Assembly: GCF_004102945.1 (NCBI RefSeq)
Contig: NZ_CP019384.1
Location: 1,890,001-1,922,000 of the forward strand
DNA length: 32,000 nt
From: Candidatus Velamenicoccus archaeovorus
Lineage (GTDB): Bacteria; Omnitrophota; Gorgyraeia; Velamenicoccales; Velamenicoccaceae
Reading direction: 5' to 3'
Shown here: one piece after another, positions 5,136-26,358 of the stretch
Position numbering within the stretch: position 1 is the first letter of the stretch
Layout of the letters: the number at the start of each line of letters is the position of its first letter
Position numbers and translations under genes: made by a program
Notes under the pieces: generated by a model
What the model was told of the DNA's origin: nothing
The model's database searches: none
The model's input: the letters and a program-made list of their open reading frames with translations, nothing else

Positions 5136-6488
5136 TTAGATTCTCAGCAAAAACAAGAACTTATTAGCAATCCAGAAATATATTGTAATGCCCAAGATAT
5201 CAATTATTGTCGTAAGTAAAGGCCCGCTCATCAAAGCCGGGTCTAATTTAATCTTTTTTAATATAATGGGGAGGCTGGCGCCTATCACTGCGGAAATGAT
5301 AACAGTTAACCCCATGGAAAGCCCCACAGAAAGGCTCAAGCCCCAGTTGTATTCTTGAAAAAATACCCTTAATATGCACGCTAAGGCCAAAATGCCGCCT
5401 AACAAGATTCCCAGCATTGACTCTCTTAAAGCTACCTTGAGAAAATCGTTTATTTTTATCTCGCCCACCGCCAAACTCCTGATAACTATCGTCGAGGATT
5501 GGGTGCCTGCGTTACCAGCCGTATCAACAAGCATGGGGAGAAAAAAACTTAATGCAATCCATTTTTGTATAGTCAGCTGGAATTTTTGAAGAATAAAGCC
5601 TGAGGCAGATCCCAAAATCACCAATAAGATAAGCCAAAAACTTCTTTTCCAAAGTATATTAAACAGATTCGTCTCAAGATAAGGTTCTTCTATGGGGACA
5701 ACTGCGGCAATTCTTTGGAAGTCTTCTGTGGCCTCCTCATCAATAACATCTACCAGATCATCAAAGGTTATTATCCCTAATAATTTCTCATTATTATCTA
5801 TAACCGGCAGAGCCAGAAGATCATATTTTTTAAAAATGCCTAAAGCCTCTTCTTGATCCCGGTATACGTTAATCTTCTTCACATCTCTAAACATAATGTC
5901 TTTTATCAGCGCGCCTGCCTGGGCTAAAACTATTTTTTTAAGCGATACTACGCCTATTAATTTCCTTTCGGCATTTAATACATAAGCGTGATAAATTGTT
6001 TCTGTTTTTAAGCCGATTTGTTTTATGTGCTCCAGGGCGGCTTCAACAGTCATGTCTTCATAAAGCTGCACAAAGTCCGGAGTCATCAGCCTTCCCACGG
6101 AATTCTCGGGATAATTAAGTATCTGCTGGGCTATCTCTCTTTCCTCATAATAAAGATAGCTCATAAATTTTTTAACCAGCTCCGCAGGCATTTCTTCAAA
6201 TAATCCGGTCCTGTCGTCAACCGACATTTCATTTAAGATTGTCCTGATTTCAGATGTGGTTAAATCCTCGAGCATTTTTTCCTGTTCCTCTACAGGAAAA
6301 CTCATAAAGACTTCCACGGCTGTGTCGGGAGGAATCATGCGGAATACGATCATCTTCCAGGATGGGTTAAAAAGATGGAAGATAAAATACGCTATGTCTT
6401 CCGGATGCTGCGGGATAATCTCCTTTAATTCGGAGAGTTTTCTTTGCGTTATCAGTTCTTCTGCTTTTTTTATAATTTTCTTATTCAT
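5136..6488 (-). CDS. mgtE: Magnesium transporter MgtE
   Basis: MgtE N-domain, tandem CBS region (VGRLMTPDF..., LPVIDNNEKLLGIITFDD) and a C-terminal membrane domain with the MLVDTAGNAGTQS motif. Confidence 0.92.
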   Translation of the reverse strand: MNKKIIKKAEELITQRKLSELKEIIPQHPEDIAYFIFHLFNPSWKMIVFRMIPPDTAVEVFMSFPVEEQEKMLEDLTTSEIRTILNEMSVDDRTGLFEEMPAELVKKFMSYLYYEEREIAQQILNYPENSVGRLMTPDFVQLYEDMTVEAALEHIKQIGLKTETIYHAYVLNAERKLIGVVSLKKIVLAQAGALIKDIMFRDVKKINVYRDQEEALGIFKKYDLLALPVIDNNEKLLGIITFDDLVDVIDEEATEDFQRIAAVVPIEEPYLETNLFNILWKRSFWLILLVILGSASGFILQKFQLTIQKWIALSFFLPMLVDTAGNAGTQSSTIVIRSLAVGEIKINDFLKVALRESMLGILLGGILALACILRVFFQEYNWGLSLSVGLSMGLTVIISAVIGASLPIILKKIKLDPALMSGPLLTTIIDILGITIYFWIANKFLFLLRI

Positions 6489-6499
6489 ATCGCCTATGT

Positions 6500-6742
6500 T
6501 TAGAGATGATATTCTTTGGCCGCTTCCGGCTGATATAATATTTTCTTAATCTTAAGCCTTCTTACCCCTGCCGGGACTTTCCATTCGATAACATCTCCTA
6601 CTTTATAACCCAATATTGCTGTGCCGATGGGGGCTAAAATAGAGATTTTGTTTTGCTCAATATCTGCGTCTTCAGGATATACCAGTTGATAAAATTCGTC
6701 TTTACCCGTATCCATATCCCTGAGATAGACCTTTGAGTTCAT
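6500..6742 (-). CDS. C-terminal half of an Rnk/GreA-family regulator (GreA/GreB C-terminal domain)
   Basis: ISILAPIGTAILGYKVGDVIEW...YQPEAA matches the Rnk C-domain. Its ATG overlaps the stop of the upstream half-gene (ATGA). Confidence 0.7.
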   Translation of the reverse strand: MNSKVYLRDMDTGKDEFYQLVYPEDADIEQNKISILAPIGTAILGYKVGDVIEWKVPAGVRRLKIKKILYQPEAAKEYHL

Positions 6743-7017
6743 CGTAACGAATCAGGCGGGATTTTGTCGGTATCAACTATAATTGCCCTGTTTAATTCGG
6801 CTTCAAGCTCTTCGATCCGCGCCCATTCCGCATCGTTCCTTGAGTTCTTTATTTTCCTTACCTCTTTAATTAATCCCAATTCATCCCGCGAACTGAAGCT
6901 GTGCTCCAGCTCATCAAGGGACCGCCTGTCAATATCCTGCCGGGAACTCATATTTTTGATTATTTCTGTGAGGCGGTCAAAATCCGGCTTTGTTATATAA
7001 ATTTGCTTGTCTTTCAT
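6739..7017 (-). CDS. N-terminal half of the same Rnk/GreA-family regulator (coiled-coil part), cut off by a frameshift
   Basis: Begins IYITKPDFDRL and ends ...IPPDSLR*, exactly where intact Rnk proteins read ...DVVTMNS. See the related finding. Confidence 0.6.
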   Translation of the reverse strand: MKDKQIYITKPDFDRLTEIIKNMSSRQDIDRRSLDELEHSFSSRDELGLIKEVRKIKNSRNDAEWARIEELEAELNRAIIVDTDKIPPDSLR

Positions 7018-7057
7018 TGCGACTCCTTCTCTATATTTTCGGTTAGTTTTCTATTCT

Positions 7058-7486
7058 TTATATATATTGCTCGAGCCTTTTAATCCATAACTCTGATGTG
7101 GGCTGTATCTTTAATATCTGGACGCTGTATTTTGATCCGTCGAATTCTTTTACTTCTACGGTGTCTCCTTTTTTATGTCCCAGCAAAGCAATTCCTAAAT
7201 TAGAAAGCACAGAAACCCTGCCCAGCTCTTTACACTCAATTTTTGGGATGACAAATAAATATTCCTTCTCTTCCGCAGTTGATATATTTTTAAACCTTAC
7301 TGCAGAATTAAGGTATACGATATCAACGAGCCCAAGGGAAGCATCATCAACTTTTTTTGCTTTATTTAGCTTTTCTTTGAGGAATAAAATGCGCTTTTTT
7401 GTTTGTCGATCAGGAAAACTCCCGGCCTCATAGCCAATTATTAATTCCTTAATTCTCCTGTAGTCGCTTTTTTTAATTATGCACAT
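7058..7486 (-). CDS. Rnk/GreA-like regulator (intact paralogue)
   Basis: C-terminal VSVLSNLGIALLGHKKGDTVEV matches the GreA/GreB C-domain signature. Confidence 0.65.
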   Translation of the reverse strand: MCIIKKSDYRRIKELIIGYEAGSFPDRQTKKRILFLKEKLNKAKKVDDASLGLVDIVYLNSAVRFKNISTAEEKEYLFVIPKIECKELGRVSVLSNLGIALLGHKKGDTVEVKEFDGSKYSVQILKIQPTSELWIKRLEQYI

Positions 7487-7509
7487 TTAGCTTAACTCAT
7501 TCTTAATCC

Positions 7510-8181
7510 TTATGCGCTAATTTCCGCAATGTTGACAGTATGCGCAGCAATATCACCTACGCTCTGAATAACAAATAATAAAATAGATTCGCCTCTTTCC
7601 GCTGTTTCTGATTTTTTATTTGTTTCCATTAAATCATCCTGCATACGGCTGCATATCTTTCTTAGCTCCAGGCTTGCTAAAATAGTCTTCTTAGCTAACC
7701 CTGCGTCTTGTTTTAAAAAAGAAATGACCGAATCCCAGACAATATTTTGAAAAATTTTAGCAAATTGAGAAATATTGATTTTATACCTTTCGGGGATATC
7801 TGTATTTAAACTTAGTAGGCTTTCCGCAATACCAGCGGTTAAGTCCCCAATTTGTTTTAATTCAATATTAACGCTTATGCTTGAAGAGATGAATGTTAAG
7901 ACGCTGCCCTCGGGCTGATACTGTTTAATGATATTAGTAAGATATTCCCCGGAGGCGACGCAAAGAGCTCCTATTTTTTTGTTATTGTCTATTATCTCTT
8001 GTATCTTTTGGGCATCAAAGCGCATCAGGACGCTGGATGTTTTGCTGATAGCCTCCTGCGTTAAGCGGCAGCTTTTAAGCAAATCATCATTTAATTTCTT
8101 AAGATCTCTTTCAATGTCCATTATTGAAATATCCCTCATATCCATCCAATGCTTTTGCAATAACCAAATTAAAATATTCAT
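7510..8181 (-). CDS. PhoU-domain protein
   Basis: Two helical repeats end in PhoU-like motifs: LKQIGDLTAGIAESL and IQSVGDIAAHTVNIAE (compare ERIGDHATNIAE). Confidence 0.6.
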   Translation of the reverse strand: MNILIWLLQKHWMDMRDISIMDIERDLKKLNDDLLKSCRLTQEAISKTSSVLMRFDAQKIQEIIDNNKKIGALCVASGEYLTNIIKQYQPEGSVLTFISSSISVNIELKQIGDLTAGIAESLLSLNTDIPERYKINISQFAKIFQNIVWDSVISFLKQDAGLAKKTILASLELRKICSRMQDDLMETNKKSETAERGESILLFVIQSVGDIAAHTVNIAEISA

Positions 8182-13689: not shown

Positions 13690-14325
13690 CTATTCCCGTG
13701 TTTGTTTTGTATCGTGATCTTCGTGTTCTGCCTGCATAGTTTCTTCGTGATGCCCGCCTTTGCCAGCGATAGCGGTATGAATGCCCTCCACATAATGTAT
13801 ATATTGGACATACGCCTCAACATACTCCCGTCCAGTCTCAACGCTTTCATCTTTATGCTTTCTAGTCTCAATCGCACGATTAAACCGCTCTGTAACGCCT
13901 TCTGTTAAGTGGTGGGTCATTTTATCCGTTAATTCAGTAACCGAACCAGCATCGAACGCCTTATCCGCCTCTGCCACTATCGGCTCAACCTCTCCTGCTG
14001 GTTTTAAGCCCGTGAAAGAAGCGCCTTCACCAGCCCGATGAATACGGATAAGCGTCTCAAAGAATTTCTTCTCCGAGGCTTCTTTGTTTTGAGGATTCTT
14101 CGTCCTTTCAACCGTGGCCATTTGAAAGGCCGAACGAACTTCTGACTCAGCATCTTTTTTAACCCATTTCAAAATCGGCGTAACGTCGTTTTTCTCTAAA
14201 GCAACCTGCGCATCCTTGACTACCGGTCCGTCCATCGTGTCACAGTGGGCAAATACCTTACCCGGCATAAAAGTCATCGCCAAGAATAAGACCGAGATAA
14301 ACACTGCACCATTGATTTTGCTCAT
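13690..14325 (-). CDS. Secreted His-rich protein of unknown function (DUF6448-like by recollection)
   Basis: Signal peptide ...MTFMPGKVFA, then HCDTMDGPVV. His-rich C-terminus GKGGHHEETMQAEHEDHD. AAGGAGG Shine-Dalgarno sequence. Confidence 0.55.
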   Translation of the reverse strand: MSKINGAVFISVLFLAMTFMPGKVFAHCDTMDGPVVKDAQVALEKNDVTPILKWVKKDAESEVRSAFQMATVERTKNPQNKEASEKKFFETLIRIHRAGEGASFTGLKPAGEVEPIVAEADKAFDAGSVTELTDKMTHHLTEGVTERFNRAIETRKHKDESVETGREYVEAYVQYIHYVEGIHTAIAGKGGHHEETMQAEHEDHDTKQTRE

Positions 14326-14758: not shown

Positions 14759-15084
14759 TGGTTTTTAATCATAACTAAAAGCATCTTAAATTTCTGCATA
14801 GCCTTCAAAGCGTGCGGTTTGTTTGCAGGTATGATGATCATTTCGCCTTTTTTCACAATAGAAGGCTTACCGGAAATCTTAATTTCGGCCCGGCCATCCA
14901 CAAGATAAACTAGCGCGTCAAACGGAGCCGTATGCTCGCTTAAACCCTGTCCTTTATCAAACGCAAATAGGGTAACGGTGCCAGTATCTTTCTTCACGAT
15001 TTCCTGACTGACGATTGCGTCAGCCTGATACTTGAGTAGATCCGAAAGGACGAATGCTTTAGCTAATAATTTATTTACCTTCAT
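14755..15084 (-). CDS. Cupin-domain protein
   Basis: Cupin_2 layout: [24 protein letters not shown]...[14 protein letters not shown]. Confidence 0.75.
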
Positions 15085-15616
15085 TTTTCTCCCATTCTAA
15101 AACGATATTCTTATATATGGCGTGGATAAACTGGCGGTCAAAATCGTTAAACTCAACCAGCATAGCGGATTGTTCATCTTTGGTGAAATAATTCATCACC
15201 GGCAAAAAGAAATGCTTATCTTCTTTTTCAATATGCTTGGGATAAAACTTCACAAGGATACCCATATTCCCTACAATTACCTTGACCGAATCTTTTTCTC
15301 CAGCAAGATATTTATTTCTGGCCTCAACGAGCTTTTGGGTATTTTCTCTGCCGAGAGCGTGCTCTTTGACAAGCTCATCCATGATCCTTTTGTGCTCTGT
15401 GGACAACTGTTTTTTAGCCAAATCCCTGAATAGAATATCTTCTTCCTTGCCGTGGTGCAGGCGGTCGGCATAGGTCTTTATAAAATCAACCGCTGTCCGG
15501 ATAAACTCCATATCAGGCGCAAGACCTTGCCCGATCTTTTGCACTTCCTTGCCCATAAGAGCGATCATCCGCTCTATAAGCCTGTGCTCAATCATTAAAG
15601 GGCCGACTGGTAACAT
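15071..15616 (-). CDS. Hemerythrin-like (HHE cation-binding) domain protein
   Basis: PLMIEHRLIERM...HHGKEEDILF...HIEKEDKHFF: repeated His/Glu ligand motifs of hemerythrin-like domains. Confidence 0.7.
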   Translation of the reverse strand: MLPVGPLMIEHRLIERMIALMGKEVQKIGQGLAPDMEFIRTAVDFIKTYADRLHHGKEEDILFRDLAKKQLSTEHKRIMDELVKEHALGRENTQKLVEARNKYLAGEKDSVKVIVGNMGILVKFYPKHIEKEDKHFFLPVMNYFTKDEQSAMLVEFNDFDRQFIHAIYKNIVLEWEKNEGK

Positions 15617-15682
15617 GGCTTTCCTTTCATTTGATAAATCTACAAATGATTCAAATCATCCCTTTAAATTTGTGGATACTTT

Positions 15683-15850
15683 TCAATTCCGGCCTTTTAA
15701 ACGCCTCCTGTCTTCCTCGATCAATTCCCTAATAATGGAAACTATCGAGTAATGTTTCTTCTGCTTCTGCAGCTGGAGCGATTTCTCTTTAAGATAAAAA
15801 TATTGGTTTTCAGTAATTTCAATGGTAGTTTTTTTCATTTTTTTAGTCAT
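15683..15850 (-). CDS. Candidate ribbon-helix-helix (CopG-like) small protein, 55 aa
   Basis: MTKKMKKTTIEITENQYFYLKEKSLQLQKQKKHYSIVSIIRELIEEDRRRLKGRN has a beta-strand-then-two-helices pattern. Below the ORF-track cutoff. It sits at the host/prophage junction. Confidence 0.4.
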   Translation of the reverse strand: MTKKMKKTTIEITENQYFYLKEKSLQLQKQKKHYSIVSIIRELIEEDRRRLKGRN

Positions 15851-15960
15851 AGAGTAACTCCCGTGGGCTTCGAAAGACGTTAAAAAACAATATTCCCATA
15901 TTTACAGTTATTTGTTACCATTATACCATTCTTTTTAGTGTAATGCCATTTAAAAATAAA

Positions 15961-15993
15961 AAACCCGCCGGTTAAATTAACCGGAGGGTTTTT
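15961..15993 (-). terminator. Bidirectional intrinsic terminator closing the phage late operon
   Basis: AAACCCGCCGGTTAA-A-TTAACCGGAGGGTTT palindrome with one mismatch. It is flanked by an A-run on the left and a T-run on the right, giving U-tracts on both strands. It lies about 55 nt after the stop at 16048. Confidence 0.7.
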
Positions 15994-16047
15994 ATTTTGG
16001 TATTTTTAAGAATCAGGGGGCTGCAGAAATAGCTGACAGGATATTTT

Positions 16048-16380
16048 TTAGAAATCTACCCTTATACCGGCCTTAGCGCCTACACCTTTGCGGTCGTCAG
16101 ATTCAGCAAAACCATACCCCTCTACAAAAGGACTAACTTCGATCCCGGATTTCTTTTCCTCTTTCTTCTGATCTACCGTCACCTGCGCTCCCGGCTGAGC
16201 GATGATATGCGTGATCTGTTTCGTGGTCTGCGTAGGCATAAAGAATGCCCGATATATTGTCAGGCCCGCAAAGCCGACAAGCGCAATACCGGTCGCATAA
16301 CGCAGTGTCTTGACCCAAGGCAAAAACTGAAAGAAGCTCCCGGCGAATTTTAATAAACTAAACTTTTCGCTTTCCGACAT
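16048..16380 (-). CDS. Phage membrane protein (one transmembrane helix; C-terminus ends ...GIRVDF)
   Basis: 110-aa ORF with hydrophobic segment ATGIALVGFAGLTIYRAFF. Last gene before the terminator. Confidence 0.45.
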   Translation of the reverse strand: MSESEKFSLLKFAGSFFQFLPWVKTLRYATGIALVGFAGLTIYRAFFMPTQTTKQITHIIAQPGAQVTVDQKKEEKKSGIEVSPFVEGYGFAESDDRKGVGAKAGIRVDF

Positions 16381-16468
16381 TCTGCACCTTGCCTTTCAGC
16401 CAGAGATATAAAAACATCCCTAACCCTCCGACTATATTCCCTAAAGTAAAAGCTATAAACACCTTCAT
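16358..16468 (-). CDS. Candidate 36-aa single-transmembrane peptide (holin-like size)
   Basis: MKVFIAFTLGNIVGGLGMFLYLWLKGKVQNVGKRKV. GAGGAGGTGG Shine-Dalgarno sequence 5 nt upstream and an ATGA overlap with the upstream stop. Below the ORF-track cutoff. Confidence 0.35.
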   Translation of the reverse strand: MKVFIAFTLGNIVGGLGMFLYLWLKGKVQNVGKRKV

Positions 16469-16671
16469 TTTTCCACCTCCTCTTTTTTCGGTTTAACCTC
16501 AGCCCTTTCCAATATGCCTATAACAAGATTCATATCTTTTATAAGGCCTTGCTTAATCAGTTCGTTCATTTTTAATTTATAGAGCAGGCTCTTGTGATCC
16601 CGGATAACCAAGGCAAGCCGCCGATACTCATGCAGATCAAATTCAAGCCTTACTTTACTGATTTCTTCCAT
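16465..16671 (-). CDS. Phage hypothetical protein
   Basis: 68-aa ORF in operon register. No motif. Confidence 0.4.
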   Translation of the reverse strand: MEEISKVRLEFDLHEYRRLALVIRDHKSLLYKLKMNELIKQGLIKDMNLVIGILERAEVKPKKEEVEK

Positions 16672-16939
16672 CTCGGCTTCTTACCTTTAAATCGTTTCTT
16701 AAATCGTCGATTGCCTTCAAAATTCGGTCGTTTTCTTTTTCAAAGAATTTGCAGTGCAGATCAAACTCCGCCTTTGAAACAAACTGGCTGCGCGGCATAT
16801 GTATCTGGTCATTCGCTAGGTGCTGAAAGAGCTTCTCGTCAATGCGGCTCACCTGCGCCATAATCGTGCCGAGCATAAAAATGGCGATTGTTACTAAGAC
16901 CGGCGTAATATATTTTGTCCAGTTCCCGCTATTCTGCAT
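16655..16939 (-). CDS. Phage membrane-anchored coiled-coil protein
   Basis: The preferred start MQNSGNWTKY at 16939 avoids overlap with the upstream gene. N-terminal transmembrane helix ITPVLVTIAIFMLGTIMAQV, then a helical region. Confidence 0.45.
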   Translation of the reverse strand: MQNSGNWTKYITPVLVTIAIFMLGTIMAQVSRIDEKLFQHLANDQIHMPRSQFVSKAEFDLHCKFFEKENDRILKAIDDLRNDLKVRSRDGRNQ

Positions 16940-16943
16940 AAGA

Positions 16944-17126
16944 CTACACCACCATCTTCGCAAGATCGTCATCAATCAAAGCAATATTTTCATCTATCTT
17001 CTGCCTCTGCTTCAAAAACATATCTTTTGCGGTTTTAAGGTTTCCCTTTGAGTACTCCTGTTTTTCGCCGTTAGGATAGGTAACGATTTTCTTTCCATTC
17101 TTATATTCCACTGTGGCTTTTGCCAT
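16944..17126 (-). CDS. Phage hypothetical protein
   Basis: 60-aa ORF with AAAGGAGG upstream. Confidence 0.4.
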   Translation of the reverse strand: MAKATVEYKNGKKIVTYPNGEKQEYSKGNLKTAKDMFLKQRQKIDENIALIDDDLAKMVV

Positions 17127-17139
17127 TTTCTACCTCCTT

Positions 17140-17694
17140 TTAAGACTGACCGCCTCTGACAGGCCGGACAAAACACATATCGCTAACTCTGCTCCAGACT
17201 GTTTTATAACCATCATATGGATACATACACCAGGCTCCGTCAAGCCATGGCGCACAGACAGTTGACGACCAATTAGGCGTCCATGTATCCGGAAATGGTA
17301 TGAAATACATTGGATCAAATGCCGGATCATACCTTGAATGGTCTACAATTGATAAAAGTTCGTTAATATTCGGCATGCGCCAGTCGTCATGACCGGCAAA
17401 GTCAAGATTCTCGCAGGCGTTGATCGCGTCATACCAGTACATAGACGATCCTAACCCTGCTGCCTGTGGATCCTTTATCCACATAAGACCTGTGGCCATA
17501 TCGATTATTGTTCCGTCACCGTTATCAATGAACCTCTGTCCGCCGCCAATTGGATATCCTTTCTGATAATAACCGTCGTCTCCCATAACATAGACCATAT
17601 ATTGTCCCGTCTTCGGGAGCCCGCCGTTTGAAGTTATCTCTGTTACCCGCTTTATTATCCTGCTTGCTTTCCTGTGCTTAAGATGCAGTTGCAT
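17140..17694 (-). CDS. DUF1566 (Lcl C-terminal, lectin-like) domain protein; likely distal fibre or receptor-binding component
   Basis: DNGDGTIIDMATGLMWIKD...WYDAINACENLDFAGHDDWRMPNINEL...WSST...VRPV matches the DUF1566 signature. The preferred start is the ATG at 17694, with GAGGAGG upstream; the track start at 17703 is a GTG. Confidence 0.65.
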   Translation of the reverse strand: MQLHLKHRKASRIIKRVTEITSNGGLPKTGQYMVYVMGDDGYYQKGYPIGGGQRFIDNGDGTIIDMATGLMWIKDPQAAGLGSSMYWYDAINACENLDFAGHDDWRMPNINELLSIVDHSRYDPAFDPMYFIPFPDTWTPNWSSTVCAPWLDGAWCMYPYDGYKTVWSRVSDMCFVRPVRGGQS

Positions 17695-17708
17695 TTTTAA
17701 CACCTCCT

Positions 17709-17999
17709 CTATGCTTCGTAAGTTGCTGTAATTTTTCCTGACTCGCTCCCCGTCTTGATCACCCTGAAATCTTTTATGTGATAAATAGAGGGCAGTTCTA
17801 CAATATCCCCGTCTTCTAAAAGGGCGCCGGATGACGGTGTAGGATTCTGCCCGTTAACGAAATACCTCATCTGACCGCCTTCCGCATGAATAAGCGCAAA
17901 AGAAGCAGGCACACCGATGCCCGGATCATAAATTGACGGCGTCAAACTCCTGGCAACATCATCAACAATGATCTCCTCGTGATTAATAACCTTTCCCAT
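17709..17999 (-). CDS. Phage hypothetical protein, 96 aa, 2 nt after the second radical SAM gene
   Basis: ORF in tight operon register. No diagnostic motif. Confidence 0.45.
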   Translation of the reverse strand: MGKVINHEEIIVDDVARSLTPSIYDPGIGVPASFALIHAEGGQMRYFVNGQNPTPSSGALLEDGDIVELPSIYHIKDFRVIKTGSESGKITATYEA

Positions 18000-18001
18000 A
18001 G

Positions 18002-19354
18002 CTAAGTTCCTCCTTTAATTTTTACCGCCGGACCGCTTTCAAATACTGTCTTTGTGGGCGGCGGTATCTTTTGTTGAACATCATCCCAATCTCTTAAGCA
18101 AAATTTGACATTCCTATTTTCAGAGTAAAACCTCTCTAAATCCGCTGCTTTCATCCTTTCATGCGCGCAAGGATAAAAGGCCGGATTAAGGTCTTCTAAA
18201 TCTATGTGCTTATACTTTTCGTAGTCAGGAGTGCCCGGGATCGGCGTATATGGCAGAGTTACTGCCTCTGCTCCATAGCTTTTAATCAGGTCAATAGTGT
18301 GTTTAATGTCTTCCGTGGTTTGGTTTGGCGCGCCAATGATTAGAAAAGAACGAAGCCTCTGGAAATGCCTCTTTGCGATATTCATTGCCCGTTCCCAATC
18401 GGCAACAAAACAATTTCTTCTCCATTCTTTAATGATAATATCGCTGGCGCTCTCAATCGGGATATTGACCGAACGAAACCCGGCATTAACCATCTTCTCT
18501 GCAATCTCATCAGTTAATAAGCGCGCCTCTACGCCGCCGTAGGAATAAAGCTCGATGTTTAAACCTTCTTGGATAACCTTATCGAGAATAATTTTAAAGT
18601 GATTTTCGTATCCGTAGAGGATATTGGCGTCGAGAAAGATAAACTTCTTTATTCCCATTGACGTATAGTATTTAAGTTCACTCACCACTTCATCCGGACT
18701 GGTATTCACTTTTGTGCAGCCTTCCACAATGTGAACGGCGCAATACGAGCAATGGTTAGGACAGCCCACCGAGGTCCCAAGGAATATCCTCTCAGGAATG
18801 TTATCTCCGAATAAATCCGTATCTATCTTGATAAAATTATCGTTTACAGTCTTTTCTTCTAAGGTCATTATTTCATCGGCCCCTGATGCCACAGCATGTT
18901 CCGGACAAAGAATAGCGTATAGGCCGCCGACCTTTACCGGAACCTTCGGCATTGTCCTTTTACACTCGGCTACGATCTCATAAACTGCCCGCCAAAGAAA
19001 AGTAAAGGTATTGCCTACAAAGATCTTGTCAGGCTGAAACTCCTCCAGTTTTTTTGTCAGCTCTTGGATCGGCAAGCCCAGCCTGTGAAACTCCCTGCAG
19101 AGTTTTTCATTCTCAAAGTTGCCGCATTTCTTATAACCGATGAATTGCGATACCGGCATGCCCTTGAAATACATTGCGTCAGGCTTGTTCTCCATAAACT
19201 TCCTCGGCCGGTAAAGAGGATACATGTTAAAAAGCTCAACTGCATGGCCTTCCCTGCGCAATTTTGTCGCAACCTTGTAAATACCCACCGGCGAATTCCG
19301 ATACATCATCGTTATAGTGGTATATTCATATGGAACGATGCATAAATACTTCAT
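18002..19354 (-). CDS. Radical SAM enzyme with an N-terminal B12-binding-like domain (class B architecture)
   Basis: CPNHCSYC (CX3CX2C) at about residue 200. It is preceded by a Rossmann-like region (PVGIYKVATKLRREGHAVELFNM) like the cobalamin-binding domain of class B radical SAM enzymes. Confidence 0.8.
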   Translation of the reverse strand: MKYLCIVPYEYTTITMMYRNSPVGIYKVATKLRREGHAVELFNMYPLYRPRKFMENKPDAMYFKGMPVSQFIGYKKCGNFENEKLCREFHRLGLPIQELTKKLEEFQPDKIFVGNTFTFLWRAVYEIVAECKRTMPKVPVKVGGLYAILCPEHAVASGADEIMTLEEKTVNDNFIKIDTDLFGDNIPERIFLGTSVGCPNHCSYCAVHIVEGCTKVNTSPDEVVSELKYYTSMGIKKFIFLDANILYGYENHFKIILDKVIQEGLNIELYSYGGVEARLLTDEIAEKMVNAGFRSVNIPIESASDIIIKEWRRNCFVADWERAMNIAKRHFQRLRSFLIIGAPNQTTEDIKHTIDLIKSYGAEAVTLPYTPIPGTPDYEKYKHIDLEDLNPAFYPCAHERMKAADLERFYSENRNVKFCLRDWDDVQQKIPPPTKTVFESGPAVKIKGGT

Positions 19355-19357
19355 GGC

Positions 19358-20644
19358 TTAGTCCTTAGGCTTCGCGGTAAGCAAAGACAGCCCCTTCTTT
19401 ACATCCTGCAACTCTTTCACCAGGCGGATCATACAACGGGCCATTACGTCTAACTTGTCCTCTACAAGCTCCGCAGGCTCATCTTTGTTGACCTTATATA
19501 TAACGCCTTTATCTTTTAGGTCTGCCATTTCGCCCTCTTTAAGTAATAATTTACCTTCCACAAGCAGCCTCCTTATTATTGGCCGTAAGGCACTGGATAT
19601 CCTTTCATTCATTTCGCAGTAGCCGTTGTCAGGAACCGCCGCGGGATCCTGATTTAAATACATGTTTGTCGCAAAACACCTGTTGCAGGAAAACACCTTG
19701 CAGTTAAGGCATTTAACCGCCTTCTGGCGCATTTCTTTGATTTTCTTAAAAGCCTTGCCGTTTTCGTCTATCCCTTTCCAGACATCGCCCAGGCAAAAAT
19801 CATATTTTTTAGAGTAGGCAACGAATCTGTGGCAAGGATAGATCTTGCCCTCAGTTGAAATGCCTATTAAGTATTCCCCGGCCCTGCAGCCTTTCTGCCG
19901 GTTAAATGAATTGTCTACTATCCTCTCCAAAGAATGGTGCAGATAGTTAAAATACTGGTTATGGCCTCTCTGGTAATACAGCTCGATGCATTTTTTAAGC
20001 TCATCTATAAATGTGCTGATTACCTCGTCATTCCAGTCGCCTTCTACAATGGGCGTGAGGTTTGTCACAGGCGTGCCAAAAGAAAGCAAAGCCTCAAAAT
20101 CTTTTGAGAGTGATTTTATGTTCTCAGGAGTGACGGTCATGCGCACGCCCACACTTTTAAAAATCTCCCGGATCTTTTTAATGTTCTCTGAAATGACCTT
20201 ATAGCTTCCCTCATCATTGGCAAATACCCTGTTGGCATTGTGAGTTTCCTCGCAGCCGTCCAAAGACACCTGGAAGTGCCAGTTGAAATTGCCATATGGG
20301 CGGATACTTTTAAAATAGTCTGTCATCTCATCTGTCAATACCGTCCCGTTGGACAAGATATGAATACCGGCCCTAAAGTTCAGCTTATCGCATACATCCC
20401 TAAGGTAATCGATACCGGCCCTGACCGTAGGAAAATTAAGAAGCGGCTCTCCGCCAAAGAATGTAAAGGTCAGACTTTCAAAAGGCCGGGCAAACATCTC
20501 CTTTTCATAATGGCCTACCAGCCAGTCTATGCCCGCAACCATAGTCTCGGGCGTCATGTCGCCTGCGCGGTTTTCTTCATAGCAGTATTTACAGCGCAGG
20601 TTGCATTTATTGGTCACAAAAATATAGGCAGACTTTGGCTTCAT
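19358..20644 (-). CDS. Radical SAM enzyme with a C-terminal SPASM/twitch-type auxiliary Cys cluster domain (anSME-like; no visible RRE)
   Basis: CNLRCKYC at residues 13-20 and FFGGEPLL. C-terminal GCRAGEYLIGISTEGKIYPCHRF...CLNCKVFSCNRC...GYCE. The start lies 1 nt after the stop of the Cys-rich fibre protein gene. Confidence 0.85.
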   Translation of the reverse strand: MKPKSAYIFVTNKCNLRCKYCYEENRAGDMTPETMVAGIDWLVGHYEKEMFARPFESLTFTFFGGEPLLNFPTVRAGIDYLRDVCDKLNFRAGIHILSNGTVLTDEMTDYFKSIRPYGNFNWHFQVSLDGCEETHNANRVFANDEGSYKVISENIKKIREIFKSVGVRMTVTPENIKSLSKDFEALLSFGTPVTNLTPIVEGDWNDEVISTFIDELKKCIELYYQRGHNQYFNYLHHSLERIVDNSFNRQKGCRAGEYLIGISTEGKIYPCHRFVAYSKKYDFCLGDVWKGIDENGKAFKKIKEMRQKAVKCLNCKVFSCNRCFATNMYLNQDPAAVPDNGYCEMNERISSALRPIIRRLLVEGKLLLKEGEMADLKDKGVIYKVNKDEPAELVEDKLDVMARCMIRLVKELQDVKKGLSLLTAKPKD

Positions 20645-20645
20645 T

Positions 20646-21221
20646 TTAATCTCCGCAATCGCATTCGCTGCAGCACTGCTCCTGGCAGGTGCAGGTACAA
20701 GTACACGTACAAGTGCAGGTACAAGTGCAAGTGCACTCGCATTCGCAGCAGACTATATGCGTATGCCCCGCTAAATTCTCTAAATGAGTCCTTAACTGTT
20801 CGTGAGCCGATGCCTTGATCCAGGTAATAAGCGCAACAACCGGATCATCCTCAAAAGCAAAGCCGGGCGCAAAAGCGTCAGAATTAACGCTGTATGCAGG
20901 CACATAGTGATAATGGCCGTTAAACGCCTTGATAAAATTTATGATCTCGTTTGTATGCGAGGCCTTTGGCGGCGTCTCATCTACAATAATCTGCGCGTTT
21001 GACTCGGCCCATGCCACCGATACATCCGGCAATTCTGCGTTTGAATTATTGCCGTTGAATACATGATAATGGCCGTCCAAGGCCTCTAAACAAGCCCTCA
21101 GTTCAACAATATGCGTCTTCTTAATAGGCGTAACATCCTGAACTAATGGATCGTCTGTCCATGCTGCAGGTATTGGATTTCCGCCTGAACTTTTTGGAGG
21201 CCCGCTTGTATAATTTCCCAT
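20646..21221 (-). CDS. Fibre-like protein with three HxH-ending repeats and a 16-Cys C-terminal tail including (Cys-Thr)x8; candidate radical SAM substrate
   Basis: Repeats end LDGHYH, FNGHYH and LAGHTH. The C-terminus reads IVCCECECTCTCTCTCTCTCTCTCQEQCCSECDCGD. AAGGA Shine-Dalgarno sequence. The gene is flanked by a fibre gene upstream and maturase-type genes downstream. Confidence 0.8.
   Translation of the reverse strand: MGNYTSGPPKSSGGNPIPAAWTDDPLVQDVTPIKKTHIVELRACLEALDGHYHVFNGNNSNAELPDVSVAWAESNAQIIVDETPPKASHTNEIINFIKAFNGHYHYVPAYSVNSDAFAPGFAFEDDPVVALITWIKASAHEQLRTHLENLAGHTHIVCCECECTCTCTCTCTCTCTCTCQEQCCSECDCGD
20685..20735 (-). repeat. Imperfect hexanucleotide coding repeat (TGY-ACN)x8 plus TGC
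   Basis: Minus strand reads TGC ACT TGC ACT TGT ACC TGC ACT TGT ACG TGT ACT TGT ACC TGC ACC TGC. Synonymous codons vary between units. Confidence 0.9.
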
Positions 21222-21230
21222 GTTTTTCCT

Positions 21231-21803
21231 TTATGCGTATACCGCTCTGGGCGGCGCATTCTCAAACCGGGAATTTGCGCTTATATATCTTAGACCCTGG
21301 CCGTCTTGAACAGAGCTAAGATGCACTGGAATTGTTTCATAAAACCCTTTCACGCCGCTTGCATTCGTTCCGTAACTCTTGTTATTCCCCGGCGAAGCTG
21401 CCCCGCCTTCCAGCTTTTCAGTGCCGACACCGCCGTCCTTTAGCTGCAGCTTGTCTCCTGCTGAAATCTGAAATACCATAGCATCTATCAGGCCGTCTAA
21501 ATAATCCGGCGCTGTATCGCTGACATCAGCTTTCAGCTTATTCGGCGAATTGGCCTCCGGCAGGACCCCGGCAGCAGAAGGAATGCTTGCCAGTCCGGTT
21601 AAAGCTGCGCCGCTCACTTTATTCGGTGTAACTATCTGCGCAAGCTTTGTGTCTTCAATCCCCGCTCCGGGCGCCACTTTCGCATTGGTAATTAAGAGAT
21701 TCGGGTCTGTGCCTAACTCCAAGGCTTCCCAGTTTGCCCTGCAGGCAGCCGGGAAGTTAATCAAAAGCATGTCATTTTCCGGCTTTGTTTTGTCCCAAGC
21801 CAT
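21231..21803 (-). CDS. Tail fibre protein (proximal part)
   Basis: The N-terminus MAWDKTKPENDMLL...CRANWEALE resembles conserved fibre N-termini in my recollection. Gly/Ala-rich extended sequence. GGGAGGT Shine-Dalgarno sequence. Positioned after the J-like gene. Confidence 0.55.
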   Translation of the reverse strand: MAWDKTKPENDMLLINFPAACRANWEALELGTDPNLLITNAKVAPGAGIEDTKLAQIVTPNKVSGAALTGLASIPSAAGVLPEANSPNKLKADVSDTAPDYLDGLIDAMVFQISAGDKLQLKDGGVGTEKLEGGAASPGNNKSYGTNASGVKGFYETIPVHLSSVQDGQGLRYISANSRFENAPPRAVYA

Positions 21804-22050
21804 CGGATACCTCCCTATTCTTATAGCTTTCAGCTACTTTATTCATGTCGTAAAGATCCGCGCCGTGCTCGCGCAAAGTCTCGATCCAGCAGACATCATG
21901 CATAAATAAAGCCTGTGCGTAGTTATACGCCTGCTCAATGCAGGTAAACACCAAAGGCCGCTTTTTGGGCGTGCGCAAAATAATGCTTCCTCTTATCAGC
22001 ACATAGGCCATATCAGCGGGGATCTCCTGTTTGCATCTTGAGCAAATCAT
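21772..22050 (-). CDS. Phage hypothetical protein with an N-terminal CxxC
   Basis: 92-aa ORF with an ATGA overlap to the upstream gene. Its 3' end overlaps the fibre gene start by 32 nt. Confidence 0.4.
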   Translation of the reverse strand: MICSRCKQEIPADMAYVLIRGSIILRTPKKRPLVFTCIEQAYNYAQALFMHDVCWIETLREHGADLYDMNKVAESYKNREVSDGLGQNKAGK

Positions 22051-22262
22051 TCCCGAACCCCTTCCGCGCTTTCCGCATGTTTAATAAACTTTTGCAGCAG
22101 GCCGTTAAGCACCGGTTTGCTAAAGTCAGCGTTCTTAATCCCGATAGTCTTTACCCGGGTTATTTCGCCGCCATCATTGACTTTATAAAGAATGACGCCG
22201 CTTGCAAAGACGCCGTTGTCAAACTCAATGATTACCTTACTTGGTATAAGTTTCTTTCCCAT
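22047..22262 (-). CDS. Phage hypothetical protein
   Basis: 71-aa ORF starting 2 nt after the stop of the J-like gene. Confidence 0.4.
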   Translation of the reverse strand: MGKKLIPSKVIIEFDNGVFASGVILYKVNDGGEITRVKTIGIKNADFSKPVLNGLLQKFIKHAESAEGVRE

Positions 22263-22264
22263 CT

Positions 22265-25200
22265 TTAAACTCCGTGACTGTGCCAGTCAAAAGCACCGGT
22301 CTGCGCAACGCCTTGAGCATTAAACAGTTTGACCTTAAAACTTGTCGTAGACTTATCAACAAACTGCGTATAAACACCTCCCCCGGAAGTTATCTCAATA
22401 TGCACATTCGGCTCCTCGTGGTAAGTCTTGGTAAAAAATACCTCTTTGCCCTCGTTCGCGTCAGAAACTGCATCGCTTCCAAAATCATCCACGTCCGGCA
22501 AATCTGCAAGGTACTGTAAAGTTGAGCAAGTCACATAATCGCCTAGGTTTTCGCGCGTAAGGACCATCTTAATTTGAAAGTATCTGCAGTAATAATCTCC
22601 CGGCTGATAATCTGCCCATTCGGACCAGTTGATATTATCCTCAGACAAGCGTATCTTGAAGCTGGCTACATTTTGCGTCTCTTGCCCTGTAAAGCGGTAA
22701 GACAGGCTGTCATTAAACCGCGCATCCGGGTCGCTGTTAAACCTTCTGCCGGTTGATAAGGAAATGATAGCCTCTATCTCAATAAATGCCGCTGCTACAT
22801 ATCCTATATCCCGCACAGGCGTATCATATTCTCCGGAAAGAAATCCGTCGGAAATTACCAGCGTCTCAAAACTGACTTCAAGATTTGTCTTTACGCCTGG
22901 CCATAATGGATGCTCCTGATATTCAGCAACTATATTCCTAAATGGGATCTCGCCTACAGTAAGGACCGACTGTGTGGGGTTTTCAGAATAGTTGCCTGAA
23001 GTATCAATGGCCTTAATCCAGAATTTCTGGTCAATGCCTTTTTTAAGGCCCGTGGTAAGATAATGCGTCCCCTGCTGGAAAGTTATCACCTCGCCGCTTT
23101 CCCAGTCTACTCCCCGCCTGATTTCGTATCCCCAGACATCCACATCCGAGATCTCGCTCCAGCCGAAATAAAGCTGATCCCTATTCTGATTAACCAAGAA
23201 AGTTGAAACGTCGCTGGGAGGCGCGGATTTGCCCACAACAGCAATAGAGGCTTCGGGAGCCGCGGTCAGAGAACTTTCCTCATCCATATCCGTTAATGAA
23301 GTAACCCTGACTTTATAGGTATGCCGGTCAACGATATCGCCGATGATTCTAAAATACGATCCGGTGGTTTCCCCTCTTGCTCCCCAACTTAAGCCCCCGT
23401 CATCGCTTAAATAAATTTTTGCTCTGGCAAAGGATTTGACATAATGATCAACAAATACCGGCCGGTCAAACCAAACATCAATGGCATTCTCAATGGTGCC
23501 GTCGGTCTTCTTAACCAGAGATTCGGTTAGTGTAAGATTTGTTACAGTTGGAATTTCCCCTGATAAAGAGGAATAATTATTTTGAGGCAGGATGATATCA
23601 GAGTCGTCATAGACAGCTTCGTTATACTCCAAGGCCTGAATCTGCACTTCATTCTTGCCTTCTCTTTGAATAGCTACAACCCTAAAGTCTTTCTTGACCT
23701 TATTCGTCTCGCCTATGGCAAAAACGTCAAAACCCTGCGGCGTATTTGTAAATGCCTGGCAGCTAATTTCTGTATATGTCCCGGCCGGAGAAGTAATTAA
23801 TCTTTCATCGATTGAATCATCTGAAAACCTGATTTGTATTTTGTAGGATTTGCCGTCTTCAATGGTCATCGGCCGGTCCAGCTTAATTAATACCGTTGTG
23901 GAGCCGTCCTTTACCCTGCCTGAAAATCCCCACTGCGGCACATCATGCGAAAGAGAAATGATATCCCCTGCCTGGCATGCAACCGCGTCAATACCTGCCT
24001 TAAAAACAATTGAGCGGTTGATATACTTTGCTACCTTTAAGGCATAGCGCGCTGCGCGGATAGCATAGCTTGCACCGGTAGTAAATAAACGGACCTGGCT
24101 TTTACGCATCGGCGCGCCGTTAGCTAAATCCTCCTCATCGATATAAGCGATAGTCTCCTGGCGGTAGTTTTTCTCTTTATCCGTAAACTGCACCTCAATC
24201 ACATTCGGCACTTCTTTAATCGTCTTCCAACTCTGCACAAAACTGTCTTTGACAATATTACCCATACCGAAAAGCTGAGTCGGCAAAGTCTGTTTATCTA
24301 TCTTGAAAGCAATCCCGCCTGCGCTGTATACCGGCATGGCGTTAAATACAGCGCTCAACTGAATCAGAATATCTAAAGCTTTATGATTGGAGTCAATGAC
24401 AACGTCTAACCTAAAGCGTTTCTCAAAACCGCCTTTTCCGTCAGCAACTTTCTCCTCGCAATACTGCGACATCTCCAAGAGCGAAGCGTTATCCAGATGC
24501 GTTGTTAAAATAAACTCCCCTAGCCCGTAACGGTTACTAATAATGAAATCCCTCAGGCACCATACCGGATTAGCTGAATATTTCTGGACATAGGTTATGC
24601 CGTCCCATTCAAGCAAAGTATCGTCGGATAAGAGCCGGTAATTGCTTCCGTCCCAGTAATAATCCTCCCAGCTGACCTGCGCGCCGGAATTCCTGATGTC
24701 CGGCACCAAAACCTTTTTGCCTTTAACAACTGCGGTAACATTCGGGGTTCCGCCGTTAAGCTGATCTGTGGCCAAAAGCTGTAGCCCTAAAAGCGCGGTA
24801 TTCGGATAACTTAAGTCATCGGTCTTAAGTTCATCTATTTGAAACAACGTTAAATCACCTTGCCGAAGTGGTGAAAGAGAACTGTCGTCTGAAGTGCGGG
24901 TGATTCTGATGTCGTACTGCCCGGGAGCAAGCCCTGCTTTACGGAATACCCTGCGCACTGTAGAGCGGGATTTTTCAGAGATAGTAGTCTCGCCTAAATC
25001 AATATAAGTGCCTTCGGAATGCAGCTTGTATTCAACCTTATAAGTGACGCTCCAACTCTGGATATCTCCGGATCCTGAACTCTGCTGGTAAAGCCCGTTA
25101 TTCAGCCTTAAGTGAATTTCAAAACCTTCCACATCCAAATCCACAGTGGTATAAATATAAGGGCTGTCTTTTACCAGGTTGGCATTGACCGGATAAAGGT

Positions 25201-25885
25201 TGTGCAGATCCTCGAAGTTACTGACAAGGCTCTGATAGTTTGCGCCAAAACGCTTTGAAACCGTTACTCCGCTGAAGTTAGCGATGGGATTATTATTAAT
25301 CTCTATTGCTTCAATCGATTCGATTTCCCCTTCACAAAGAGCAAGCAGAACATTCAAATAGTGGCTGTCGCCGTCTTCCCAAAGGAATTGATTGATGATG
25401 TTGCCGCCGATCCTGTGCTCGCCGTAGACAACCGCCACCGGCACCCCTACCTCCTGGATAGTCTGCACACCGTCCCAGCCGTAAGTAGGCGATCCTTCAT
25501 CTATGCCGGTTGCCGAACCTAAATTGAAATCCGGCATTTTCGGCTGGTTCATATGCTGATAAATGGCATAGCCCATTGATAGCACAAAGAACGTAAATAA
25601 GAATGGATGCGCTACGGCCACGGCCCATACTGCGGAAACTATAGCGGAGATAATCGCCACCACCGGCGCCTTTACTTCCGGAATAATGGTAATCTCGTCT
25701 TCATTATCAAGATATGCGGACAGATTCTCAATGCGCTTGCCGCTGACAATAACGCGCTTATTCTCATAATCAAAGCCGGACTCAATCAAGACTTCCTGAA
25801 GCGTCTTGTGGCGGGAGTAAGAAACCTCCTTAACTTGAGCCTCTTCTAGCTTAAACGGATTTTCTATATTCCTTATGGTCAGCAT
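22265..25885 (-). CDS. Tail tip / host-specificity protein, lambda gpJ-like, with an N-terminal gpI-like module
   Basis: YPNTALLGLQL and NPVWCLRDFIISNRYGLG parallel lambda J YPNTALVGVQV and NMAWCLWDMLTHPRYGMG. The N-terminus has a hydrophobic stretch plus VPVAVVYGEHRIGGNII, as in lambda gpI. The ORF is open to 25975; the ATG at 25885 minimises overlap with the K-like gene. Confidence 0.85.
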   Translation of the reverse strand: MLTIRNIENPFKLEEAQVKEVSYSRHKTLQEVLIESGFDYENKRVIVSGKRIENLSAYLDNEDEITIIPEVKAPVVAIISAIVSAVWAVAVAHPFLFTFFVLSMGYAIYQHMNQPKMPDFNLGSATGIDEGSPTYGWDGVQTIQEVGVPVAVVYGEHRIGGNIINQFLWEDGDSHYLNVLLALCEGEIESIEAIEINNNPIANFSGVTVSKRFGANYQSLVSNFEDLHNLYPVNANLVKDSPYIYTTVDLDVEGFEIHLRLNNGLYQQSSGSGDIQSWSVTYKVEYKLHSEGTYIDLGETTISEKSRSTVRRVFRKAGLAPGQYDIRITRTSDDSSLSPLRQGDLTLFQIDELKTDDLSYPNTALLGLQLLATDQLNGGTPNVTAVVKGKKVLVPDIRNSGAQVSWEDYYWDGSNYRLLSDDTLLEWDGITYVQKYSANPVWCLRDFIISNRYGLGEFILTTHLDNASLLEMSQYCEEKVADGKGGFEKRFRLDVVIDSNHKALDILIQLSAVFNAMPVYSAGGIAFKIDKQTLPTQLFGMGNIVKDSFVQSWKTIKEVPNVIEVQFTDKEKNYRQETIAYIDEEDLANGAPMRKSQVRLFTTGASYAIRAARYALKVAKYINRSIVFKAGIDAVACQAGDIISLSHDVPQWGFSGRVKDGSTTVLIKLDRPMTIEDGKSYKIQIRFSDDSIDERLITSPAGTYTEISCQAFTNTPQGFDVFAIGETNKVKKDFRVVAIQREGKNEVQIQALEYNEAVYDDSDIILPQNNYSSLSGEIPTVTNLTLTESLVKKTDGTIENAIDVWFDRPVFVDHYVKSFARAKIYLSDDGGLSWGARGETTGSYFRIIGDIVDRHTYKVRVTSLTDMDEESSLTAAPEASIAVVGKSAPPSDVSTFLVNQNRDQLYFGWSEISDVDVWGYEIRRGVDWESGEVITFQQGTHYLTTGLKKGIDQKFWIKAIDTSGNYSENPTQSVLTVGEIPFRNIVAEYQEHPLWPGVKTNLEVSFETLVISDGFLSGEYDTPVRDIGYVAAAFIEIEAIISLSTGRRFNSDPDARFNDSLSYRFTGQETQNVASFKIRLSEDNINWSEWADYQPGDYYCRYFQIKMVLTRENLGDYVTCSTLQYLADLPDVDDFGSDAVSDANEGKEVFFTKTYHEEPNVHIEITSGGGVYTQFVDKSTTSFKVKLFNAQGVAQTGAFDWHSHGV

Positions 25886-26358
25886 ATCCTGTCTTTTAAC
25901 CTGTAAAATCCCTCTATCTTCGTCTGCCACGAGGGGTCGTTTATCCTTGAAATAATCACTCCCGGTCTTGCGCAATGGATAAACCTTCCATTGCTCAAAA
26001 TTATGCCTGCGTGATTGGCAATTTTCCTTGAGTTAACAAACAATACTCCGTCGAGCATCTCAGGCGTCTTAACGCTCACCCAGTCATGAAAGTAATGCTC
26101 TTTAAAATAATCCTTACCCTGCGCTCCCCAGATCTTGCTGTATTCCAAATCCTCAATATCAAACAGCCTCACCCCTAGATCAGCGTAGACAAGCTTTAAG
26201 AATCCCCAGCAGTCAAGCCCTTCTAAGGACCGGCCGCGGTGCCGGTACGGCAGCCCAAGATATTTGCCGATAATAAATTGCTCTACATCACGTAGATGCG
26301 CCTTGCCGGTACCGACGGAAACGCCCCGAATCTCTGATAATTGTTCAGTTGTTTGCAT
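25879..26358 (-). CDS. NlpC/P60 tail-tip peptidase, lambda gpK-like (no MPN/JAB domain)
   Basis: Catalytic Cys in GLDCWGF, His in ANHAGII and His in FIHC. The start is uncertain: ATGs at 26358 and 26379, and the track start at 26406. All three overlap the L-like gene. Confidence 0.75.
   Translation of the reverse strand: MQTTEQLSEIRGVSVGTGKAHLRDVEQFIIGKYLGLPYRHRGRSLEGLDCWGFLKLVYADLGVRLFDIEDLEYSKIWGAQGKDYFKEHYFHDWVSVKTPEMLDGVLFVNSRKIANHAGIILSNGRFIHCARPGVIISRINDPSWQTKIEGFYRLKDRIC

Follow-up and report, generated by a model that had tools for sequence, protein, structure and literature searches.

A phage tail-module protein with cysteine at every second residue of its C-terminal tail, encoded beside two radical-SAM enzymes and probably cross-linked enzymatically

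We analysed a 32,000-nucleotide (nt) stretch of the genome of Candidatus Velamenicoccus archaeovorus (contig NZ_CP019384.1, positions 1,890,001 to 1,922,000; hereafter the window, numbered from its first letter), which contains a cassette of three genes on the minus strand. The first is an open reading frame (ORF) at 20646..21221 for a protein of 191 amino acids (aa), with 48 homologues, that consists of a triple-repeat body with HxH motifs and a cysteine-rich C-terminal tail; we propose that it is the substrate of the other two gene products. These are a 428-aa radical S-adenosylmethionine (SAM)/SPASM enzyme resembling PapB, QhpD and CteB (19358..20644), proposed to be a thioether synthase, and a 450-aa radical-SAM enzyme of the B12-binding type (18002..19354), proposed to be a methyltransferase or to perform a second tailoring step. 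Since the stretch with cysteine at every second residue always lies beside two radical-SAM enzymes, the 191-aa protein is probably a phage tail protein cross-linked by enzymes.

The C terminus of the 191-aa protein reads GHTHIV, CCECEC, eight threonine-cysteine (TC) units and QEQCCSECDCGD, that is, CCECEC(TC)x8QEQCCSECDCGD. The codon table places the Cys tail at aa158-191 (20649..20750) and its 16 cysteines at residues 158, 159, 161, 163, 165, 167, 169, 171, 173, 175, 177, 179, 183, 184, 187 and 189, which together cover 20655..20750; the eight TC units are aa164-179. An earlier reading of this DNA, made from the letters alone (the sequence-only reading), had given the tail sequence, the number of cysteines and their extent exactly as the codon table has them, and had missed that the tract lies on the minus strand. 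Tandem Repeats Finder reports periods of 6 and 12 at 20685..20735. The hexamers are, in order, TGCACT, TGCACT, TGTACC, TGCACT, TGTACG, TGTACT, TGTACC and TGCACC. The earlier description of adjacent 12-mers as never identical holds for neighbours taken in register, whereas hexamers 1 and 2 are identical. A plus-strand ORF at 20240..20818 (192 aa) was considered as a gene and rejected: it is antisense to two conserved genes, across the start of the radical-SAM gene and the Cys tail, and because its CRYKYTYKCRYKCKC stretch mirrors the Cys/Thr codons it is very likely no gene.

The body of the protein (aa1-157) contains a homologous unit of about 45 aa in three copies, in each of which HxH comes after a helix; the earlier reading had missed this threefold repeat. 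Repeat 1 (aa17-57; 21051..21173) ends in H51-x-H53 (21063..21071) and repeat 2 (aa67-109; 20895..21023) in H103-x-H105 (20907..20915), with nearly invariant histidines in both; repeat 3 (aa117-159; 20745..20873) ends in H153-x-H155 (20757..20765) and runs directly into the Cys tail. Pairwise comparison with hhalign gave probabilities of 99.4% (1 versus 2), 99.2% (1 versus 3) and 98.8% (2 versus 3), and the shared pattern is W-x-D-D-P...T-x-I-K-x-x-H-x-x-E-L-R...G-H-x-H. The HxH motifs that had been pointed out upstream of the tail are real (H51-Y-H53, H103-Y-H105 and H153-T-H155), and the histidines H51/53, H103/105 and H153/155 are each conserved at a level of at least 90% in the homologues. 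AlphaFold2, run with the family alignment, predicted in every repeat a single helix and, after it, the HxH segment, with a mean predicted local distance difference test score (pLDDT) of 87.6, a predicted template modelling score of 0.79 and pLDDT values above 90 for residues 1-160; on the Cys tail, where the sequence-only reading had put all cysteines on the same side of an extended strand, the pLDDT was about 50 and no strand was predicted. The 191-aa protein matched no family in Pfam, NCBIfam or PHROGs, a profile search of PDB sequences returned only noise, and Foldseek found no match to the model in PDB or BFVD at E ≤0.001. We also found no match by tblastn in 50,697 GenBank phage records and no relative among the GTDB species-representative genomes.

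The assignment of the 428-aa enzyme draws on NCBIfam, PDB and comparison of orthologues. Its best NCBIfam match is PapB, over the full profile (207.8 bits; cut-off 340, NF047865), and further matches are to the nif11-type maturase (148.2 bits), the CXXX-repeat maturase (TIGR04115; 138.1 bits, cut-off 350), QhpD (TIGR03906; 132.6 bits, cut-off 453) and the SCIFF maturase (TIGR03974; 125.8 bits, cut-off 425), with weaker ones to anaerobic sulfatase and sactipeptide maturases (65.5 and 66.5 bits). Pfam detects Radical_SAM (53.4 bits) and, below threshold, SPASM (16.6 bits), and the best PDB match is CteB (5WGG), aligned from CteB residue 98, past its N-terminal domain. The CX3CX2C motif (C14/C18/C21) and the SPASM cysteines C253, C271, C312, C315, C320, C323 and C343 are kept in six diverged orthologues; having both CX3CX2C and the set of SPASM auxiliary-cluster cysteines, the protein is, judged by its sequence, a radical-SAM maturase. 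A collection of 5.8 billion proteins contains about 28 unannotated clusters scoring above 230 bits to this enzyme, several of them from contigs equal in length to ones that encode homologues of the tail protein. Below these clusters the scores fall sharply, and the first relatives that have a name are Paenibacillus PapB (~127 bits, 31% identity) and QhpD (~30%). In three related loci the radical-SAM/SPASM gene encodes 763-774 aa (L001:8589-10880, L002:3985-6309 and L007:2197-4488), and those enzymes contain an intein with a LAGLIDADG homing endonuclease (Pfam Intein_splicing and LAGLIDADG_3).

For the 450-aa enzyme, Pfam gives Radical_SAM (81.5 bits) and a B12-binding domain at 24.1 bits against a cut-off of 32.1, which is weak in the orthologues too. 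Its NCBIfam matches are PhpK-like (92.7 bits) and the glutamine C-methyltransferase of methyl-coenzyme M reductase (MCR; 56 bits), and the best PDB match, a weak one, is 9CCB (MgmA; 41 bits). The first two genes of the cassette are closely apposed: the TAA stop codon of the 191-aa gene (20646..20648) is followed by a single base and then by the ATG of the radical-SAM/SPASM gene (20644..20642), and the last two codons (G190-D191) provide a GGAGA Shine-Dalgarno-like motif for that gene (20650..20654, minus strand). GGA/GGG GAT TAA is kept in close relatives. The GGAGA motif and the 1-nt gap suggest translational coupling of the two genes.

At all loci with downstream DNA (20/20), orthologues of both enzyme genes come after the gene for the Cys-tail protein. 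The tail architecture around the trio varies: it is TipJ-type in the window and in L008, a contractile-tail baseplate with gpV, PAAR, gp25, gp6 and P2-I in L003, and includes a Collar-domain protein in L007 and a collagen-like fibre in L005. Some cassettes (L003, L009) have an inserted aldo-keto reductase and a 235-aa protein, and no protease or exporter/transporter is conserved in the cassettes examined. Radical-SAM genes neighbour all four distant Cys-tailed relatives (P0106, P0154, P0069 and a paralogue in L001) and neither of the two relatives that have no Cys tail; the samples are small and the direction is consistent, and it is with the Cys tail that radical-SAM genes are associated, not with the repeat domain. 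The L001 paralogue belongs to a second cassette (L001:3136-7275), in which a gene for a 255-aa protein, with a triple WTDxP...H..ELR repeat and a Cys-rich stretch (SSSCICESEQCEHCADCGY...), is followed by three radical-SAM genes. In L008 (8554-9666) and L020 (~6372-7673) the tail protein is 64-71% identical to that of the window and both radical-SAM enzymes are only 31-34% identical; going by these identities, the enzymes either diverged much faster than the substrate or were swapped for those of another lineage.

The period of the Cys tail is widely kept. Cysteine falls on every second residue in 47 of 48 homologues, down to ~35% identity, as well as in the 14 IMG/VR loci that encode relatives of the 191-aa protein, and CCECEC is nearly invariant across the 48 homologues; the periodic peptide pattern is far beyond chance. 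The residues interleaved in the longest CxC runs are mostly Thr (239), Glu (71), Gln (61) and Asp (30), together ~89% (401/451), with six Ser. Two ways of ending recur among the tails, with either a long CxC run closing in ...RCEPEM or ...CDAEI, or a shorter CxC run followed by QE(D/Q)CCS(Q/E)C(W/D)..D; the tail in the window combines a long CxC run with the QE(D/Q)CCS(Q/E)C(W/D)..D ending. Among eight sequences from independent metagenomes, the window included, that share 86-96% protein identity, the tail has the same length; among its 40 codon columns the differences are purely synonymous at 30, and at one the amino acid changes (Q180T in L015). Three loci (L018, L019 and L022) are two TC units short, with six in place of eight, a difference of 12 nt that keeps the frame. 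The sequence-only reading had proposed that orthologous tails be aligned and that the peptide repeat is under selection; in the alignment the repeat number varies (8 versus 6) with the Cys phase kept and with no frame disruption. Synonymous-only divergence together with in-frame repeat changes argues for protein-level selection and not for an artefact, and we conclude that the tail is under strong purifying, protein-level selection. In the L019 copy (6001-6600) there is also C187S, and loss of the stop codon lengthens the protein by 13 residues (KNETEINLYFCNK); this copy is either decaying or affected by a sequencing error.

Codon scrambling within the repeat had also been taken as a sign of selection against replication slippage. 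As the neutral expectation we used random synonymous choice with the codon usage of neighbouring phage genes. One identical pair of neighbouring hexamers is observed against 1.13 expected, the probability that no in-register 12-mers are identical is 0.92, and close relatives have a mean of 0.6 identical neighbouring hexamers. Because the scrambling matches this expectation, selection against slippage is not needed to account for it. The scrambling does rule out a recent expansion, and gives no sign of anti-slippage selection.

The repeat domain extends well beyond proteins with a Cys tail. A profile search of 1.84 billion representative proteins identified 16 clusters of the family proper (E <1e-30) and 2,285 representatives that contain the repeat module (E ≤0.001). 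In many members of this superfamily the triple repeat forms the C-terminus of a long protein and there is no Cys tail; one of these, P0137 (580 aa), is encoded immediately ahead of an SH3/amidase/holin lysis cassette, where a tail-fibre gene usually lies. Among 138 further representatives, 21 have at least six cysteines in their last 45 residues, and most of those 21 tails follow the CxC theme with interleaved Asn, Asp, Ser, His or Thr; His, Asn and Asp abound in the tails of distant relatives, and one distant relative (P0154) has a CxxxC-type tail. The (S)WTDPxITAxxTKIRKVHIDELRxAI triple repeat is widespread (P0055, P0059, P0085, P0137 and P0160) and has no Pfam model.

The right half of the window is a siphovirus-like tail module, with a tail terminator, a tape measure, minor tail proteins and TipJ, which the sequence-only reading had missed. 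TipJ here is a 1236-aa central tail fibre protein of the TipJ type (22265..25975, minus strand; Pfam FNIII-A_GpJ and Phage-tail_3; phrog_31, E = 4e-149), and the genes for the tape measure and minor tail proteins lie upstream. Directly upstream of the 191-aa gene on the same strand lies a gene for a 190-aa protein (21231..21803), which has only a weak PHROGs match and is syntenic in close relatives; from its position, this protein is possibly fibre-related.

On balance, and with a confidence that goes only somewhat past even, we favour the reading that the 191-aa protein is a fibre-associated protein of the phage tail module whose C-terminal 34 residues are a built-in core, stapled by thioethers, of the kind found in peptides that are made by the ribosome and modified after translation (RiPPs). 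In this scheme the SPASM enzyme would remove a hydrogen from an interleaved Thr, Glu, Gln or Asp, at its beta- or gamma-carbon, and that carbon would then be joined to the sulfur of a neighbouring Cys, as is done by PapB, QhpD and CteB. The outcome would be a ladder with as many as a dozen or so thioether staples, to which the B12-type enzyme may add methyl groups or other tailoring, giving a rigid appendage that would resist reduction and proteases and be displayed on the tail (tip) of phages from oxygen-poor habitats. QhpD makes Cys-Asp/Glu thioethers within a protein, acting on QhpC; PapB, which is homologous to QhpD, makes six Cys-Asp links, and Asp and Glu are documented as acceptors for both enzymes; and the Tte1186/CteB thioether joins Cys32 to Thr37 (PMC8172795). 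For PapB the acceptor may stand anywhere between i+1 and i+7, and must be on the C-terminal side of the donor Cys (PMC12373016). QhpD acting on QhpC and MgmA acting on MCR are precedents for radical-SAM enzymes that work on folded proteins, and the bias of the interleaved residues towards Thr, Glu, Gln and Asp suggests that these residues take part in the reaction. By analogy with T4-type and pyocin fibres, in which HxH motifs bind iron (PMC11705849, PMC6116203), a metal ion may be held by the six histidines that the three HxH motifs supply. The sequence-only reading had likened the acidic residues next to the non-repeat cysteines to Cys-Asp/Glu cross-link sites, an idea that fits the adjacent enzyme, whose nearest characterised relatives are PapB, QhpD and CteB, although the chemistry itself we infer. 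The further proposal that in oxygen-poor habitats phages employ radical-SAM enzymes of the RiPP type to equip a tail-fibre tip protein of the virion with a dense thioether ladder and methylation is one that we make tentatively, and would not ourselves bet on.

Several points weigh against the cross-linked tail protein that we favour. The SPASM enzyme scores below every NCBIfam equivalog cut-off and is without the CteB-type N-terminal recognition domain, and the B12-binding domain of the 450-aa enzyme is sub-threshold. Thioether formation, its sites and methylation are all read from family resemblance, and placement in the virion is read from gene position in the tail module; no similarity to known fibre families was detectable in Pfam, NCBIfam, PHROGs, PDB or BFVD. 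The CxC, CC and HxH motifs also resemble metal-binding sequence, which the His-, Asn- and Asp-rich tails of distant relatives fit at least as well.

The Cys tail could be a metallothionein-like metal-thiolate extension of the HxH sites, with free thiolates binding Fe, Zn or Cu, possibly between chains, and with the radical-SAM enzymes acting elsewhere or only assisting assembly; we consider this unlikely. It is consistent with the CxC/CC motifs and three conserved HxH motifs, with iron binding by HxH in T4-type and pyocin fibres (PMC11705849, PMC6116203), with the abundance of His, Asp and Asn in the tails of distant relatives and with the AlphaFold2 prediction that the tail alone is disordered. 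It is less easily squared with the constant linkage to a thioether-type SPASM enzyme, apparently with translational coupling, with the finding that radical-SAM neighbours track the Cys tail and not the repeat domain in the relatives sampled, or with the lack of any metallothionein family match for the 191-aa protein in Pfam and NCBIfam. Lys, Ser, Gly and Ala are common spacers in metallothioneins, whereas the interleaved residues here are ~89% Thr, Glu, Gln or Asp, with few of those four. The idea that the tail is a substrate for other chemistry we regard as similarly improbable: the product might be formylglycine, as with anaerobic sulfatase maturases, alpha-carbon sactionine links, or Cys that is S- or C-methylated by the B12-type enzyme. 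Alpha, beta and gamma linkage look alike at the level of sequence, the partner enzyme resembles methyltransferases, and the SPASM enzyme does match anaerobic sulfatase and sactipeptide maturases, more weakly (65.5 and 66.5 bits); the thioether maturases PapB, QhpD, SCIFF and CXXX-repeat are nonetheless its best matches by a wide margin, and the Thr/Glu/Gln/Asp bias again suggests that the interleaved residues participate.

A RiPP carried as prophage cargo would read the locus differently, with the 157-aa body as an oversized leader and the modified peptide cleaved off as a toxin or signal. The gene order of precursor, maturase and second maturase is the standard RiPP layout, and the maturase comes from RiPP-associated families; set against this, the cassettes conserve no protease or exporter, they always lie inside blocks of tail genes, whose tail types are unrelated, AlphaFold2 models the body with confidence as a folded domain, and the repeat domain also forms the C-terminal part of long proteins, one being encoded at a tail-fibre position. 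We think a released peptide rather improbable. An assembly artefact or a recent, functionless microsatellite expansion, finally, has next to no chance of being correct, in agreement with the sequence-only reading. The DNA does have a period-6 tandem repeat, but the same peptide occurs in more than ten independent assemblies with heavy synonymous divergence, which refutes this explanation, and it is kept in homologues down to ~35% identity.

Elsewhere in the window, two further minus-strand genes lie beyond the 450-aa enzyme and accompany the cassette only in closer relatives (L011, L014, L015, L017-L020 and L022). They encode a 96-aa protein of no family (17709..17999) and a 187-aa protein with an Lcl_C/DUF1566 domain (17140..17703; Pfam PF07603, 90.5 bits), and may be further tail or adhesin parts. 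The left half of the window (1 to ~15.6 kb) consists of cellular genes, including those for a TdeIII restriction enzyme and methylase, MgtE, a two-component system, an Na/H exchanger, a DUF6448 protein and hemerythrin. With a cellular left half and a tail-module right half, the element is a prophage. A two-way terminator-like hairpin at 15968-15984 (CCGGTTAAATTAACCGG, with T-runs on both strands) may mark its end. The DUF6448 protein (13690-14325, minus strand) probably carries a signal peptide, and its C-terminus is rich in His, Glu and Asp (GGHHEETMQAEHEDHD); its gene adjoins hemerythrin and cupin-like genes, with which it may form a metal-related host island. A search with Rfam of 15000..23000 found nothing, and the window contains no tRNA genes.

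In the literature searched, we found no account of a radical-SAM, SPASM or RiPP system acting with a phage tail or tail fibre, and apparent matches were unrelated systems. If the 191-aa protein is indeed a virion protein, this would be, within the searches made, the first described radical-SAM modification of a virion structural protein, and the founding member of a wider class in which the triple-repeat domain goes with a tail of periodic Cys and with between one and three radical-SAM enzymes. Cross-linking of the tail would carry radical-SAM peptide chemistry beyond small secreted natural products, into a structural protein of the virus particle, would define a new type of thioether-synthase substrate, with Cys at every second residue attached to a folded domain, and would hint at the way in which phages of anoxic environments harden or specialise the apparatus by which they recognise hosts. 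The compact three-gene set makes the hypothesis directly testable and may provide an enzyme able to staple Cys/Thr/Glu sequences of very high density. The unnamed, widespread triple-repeat domain, with its 2,285 representatives at E ≤0.001, is flagged for annotation.

Comparison with known systems places the locus near several of them. The ranthipeptide freyrasin (PapA/PapB) is alike in its maturase, which is both the best family match and the nearest named homologue, and in a substrate with many Cys and nearby acidic acceptors; PapB also tolerates an acceptor at i+1 (PMC12373016). The locus differs from it in the family score (207.8 against a cut-off of 340), in a 191-aa folded substrate in place of a short peptide, in CxC instead of CxxxD with Thr and Gln as main interleaved residues, and in the additional B12-type radical-SAM enzyme and phage tail-module context. 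QhpC/QhpD, the gamma subunit of quinohemoprotein amine dehydrogenase and its maturase, shares a SPASM enzyme (QhpD family match 132.6 bits) and offers a likeness in a small structural protein that carries several intra-protein Cys-Asp/Glu thioethers and stays in its complex; a quinone cofactor, a dehydrogenase and QhpE/F/G partners are all lacking here, the cysteines are far denser and the origin is viral. For the SCIFF/thermocellin pair CteA/CteB and Tte1186, CteB is the best solved structure and the reported Cys-Thr thioether is relevant to the (TC)n tract, whereas the N-terminal recognition domain is missing here, the score is 125.8 against a cut-off of 425 and the precursor is not a 45-residue peptide with six Cys. 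Periodic-Cys RiPPs, namely the CXXX-repeat system (TIGR04115) and CefA/CefB with Cys at every fifth residue, likewise combine a fixed Cys period with a SPASM maturase (138 and 92 bits); the period here is 2 (in the CXXX system, every fourth residue), the scores are far below cut-off and the substrate has a large folded domain. The HxH sites of the T4 gp37 tip and of R-pyocin fibres are matched by three conserved HxH motifs in a tail-module protein, although here all three lie in one chain on internal repeats, with no similarity of sequence or fold. MgmA, the B12-dependent radical-SAM glutamine C-methyltransferase of MCR, is only weakly similar to the 450-aa enzyme (41 bits), yet it is the nearest solved relative (9CCB) and modifies a protein side chain. 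Where ranthipeptide and sactipeptide RiPPs have a short removable leader with export and a protease, the candidate core at this locus follows a 157-aa body that is confidently predicted to fold, and the scores reach none of the curated cut-offs for the PapB, SCIFF maturase, QhpD and CXXX-repeat families. The locus thus falls outside every named family, yet it would work like a ranthipeptide or QhpC/QhpD system.

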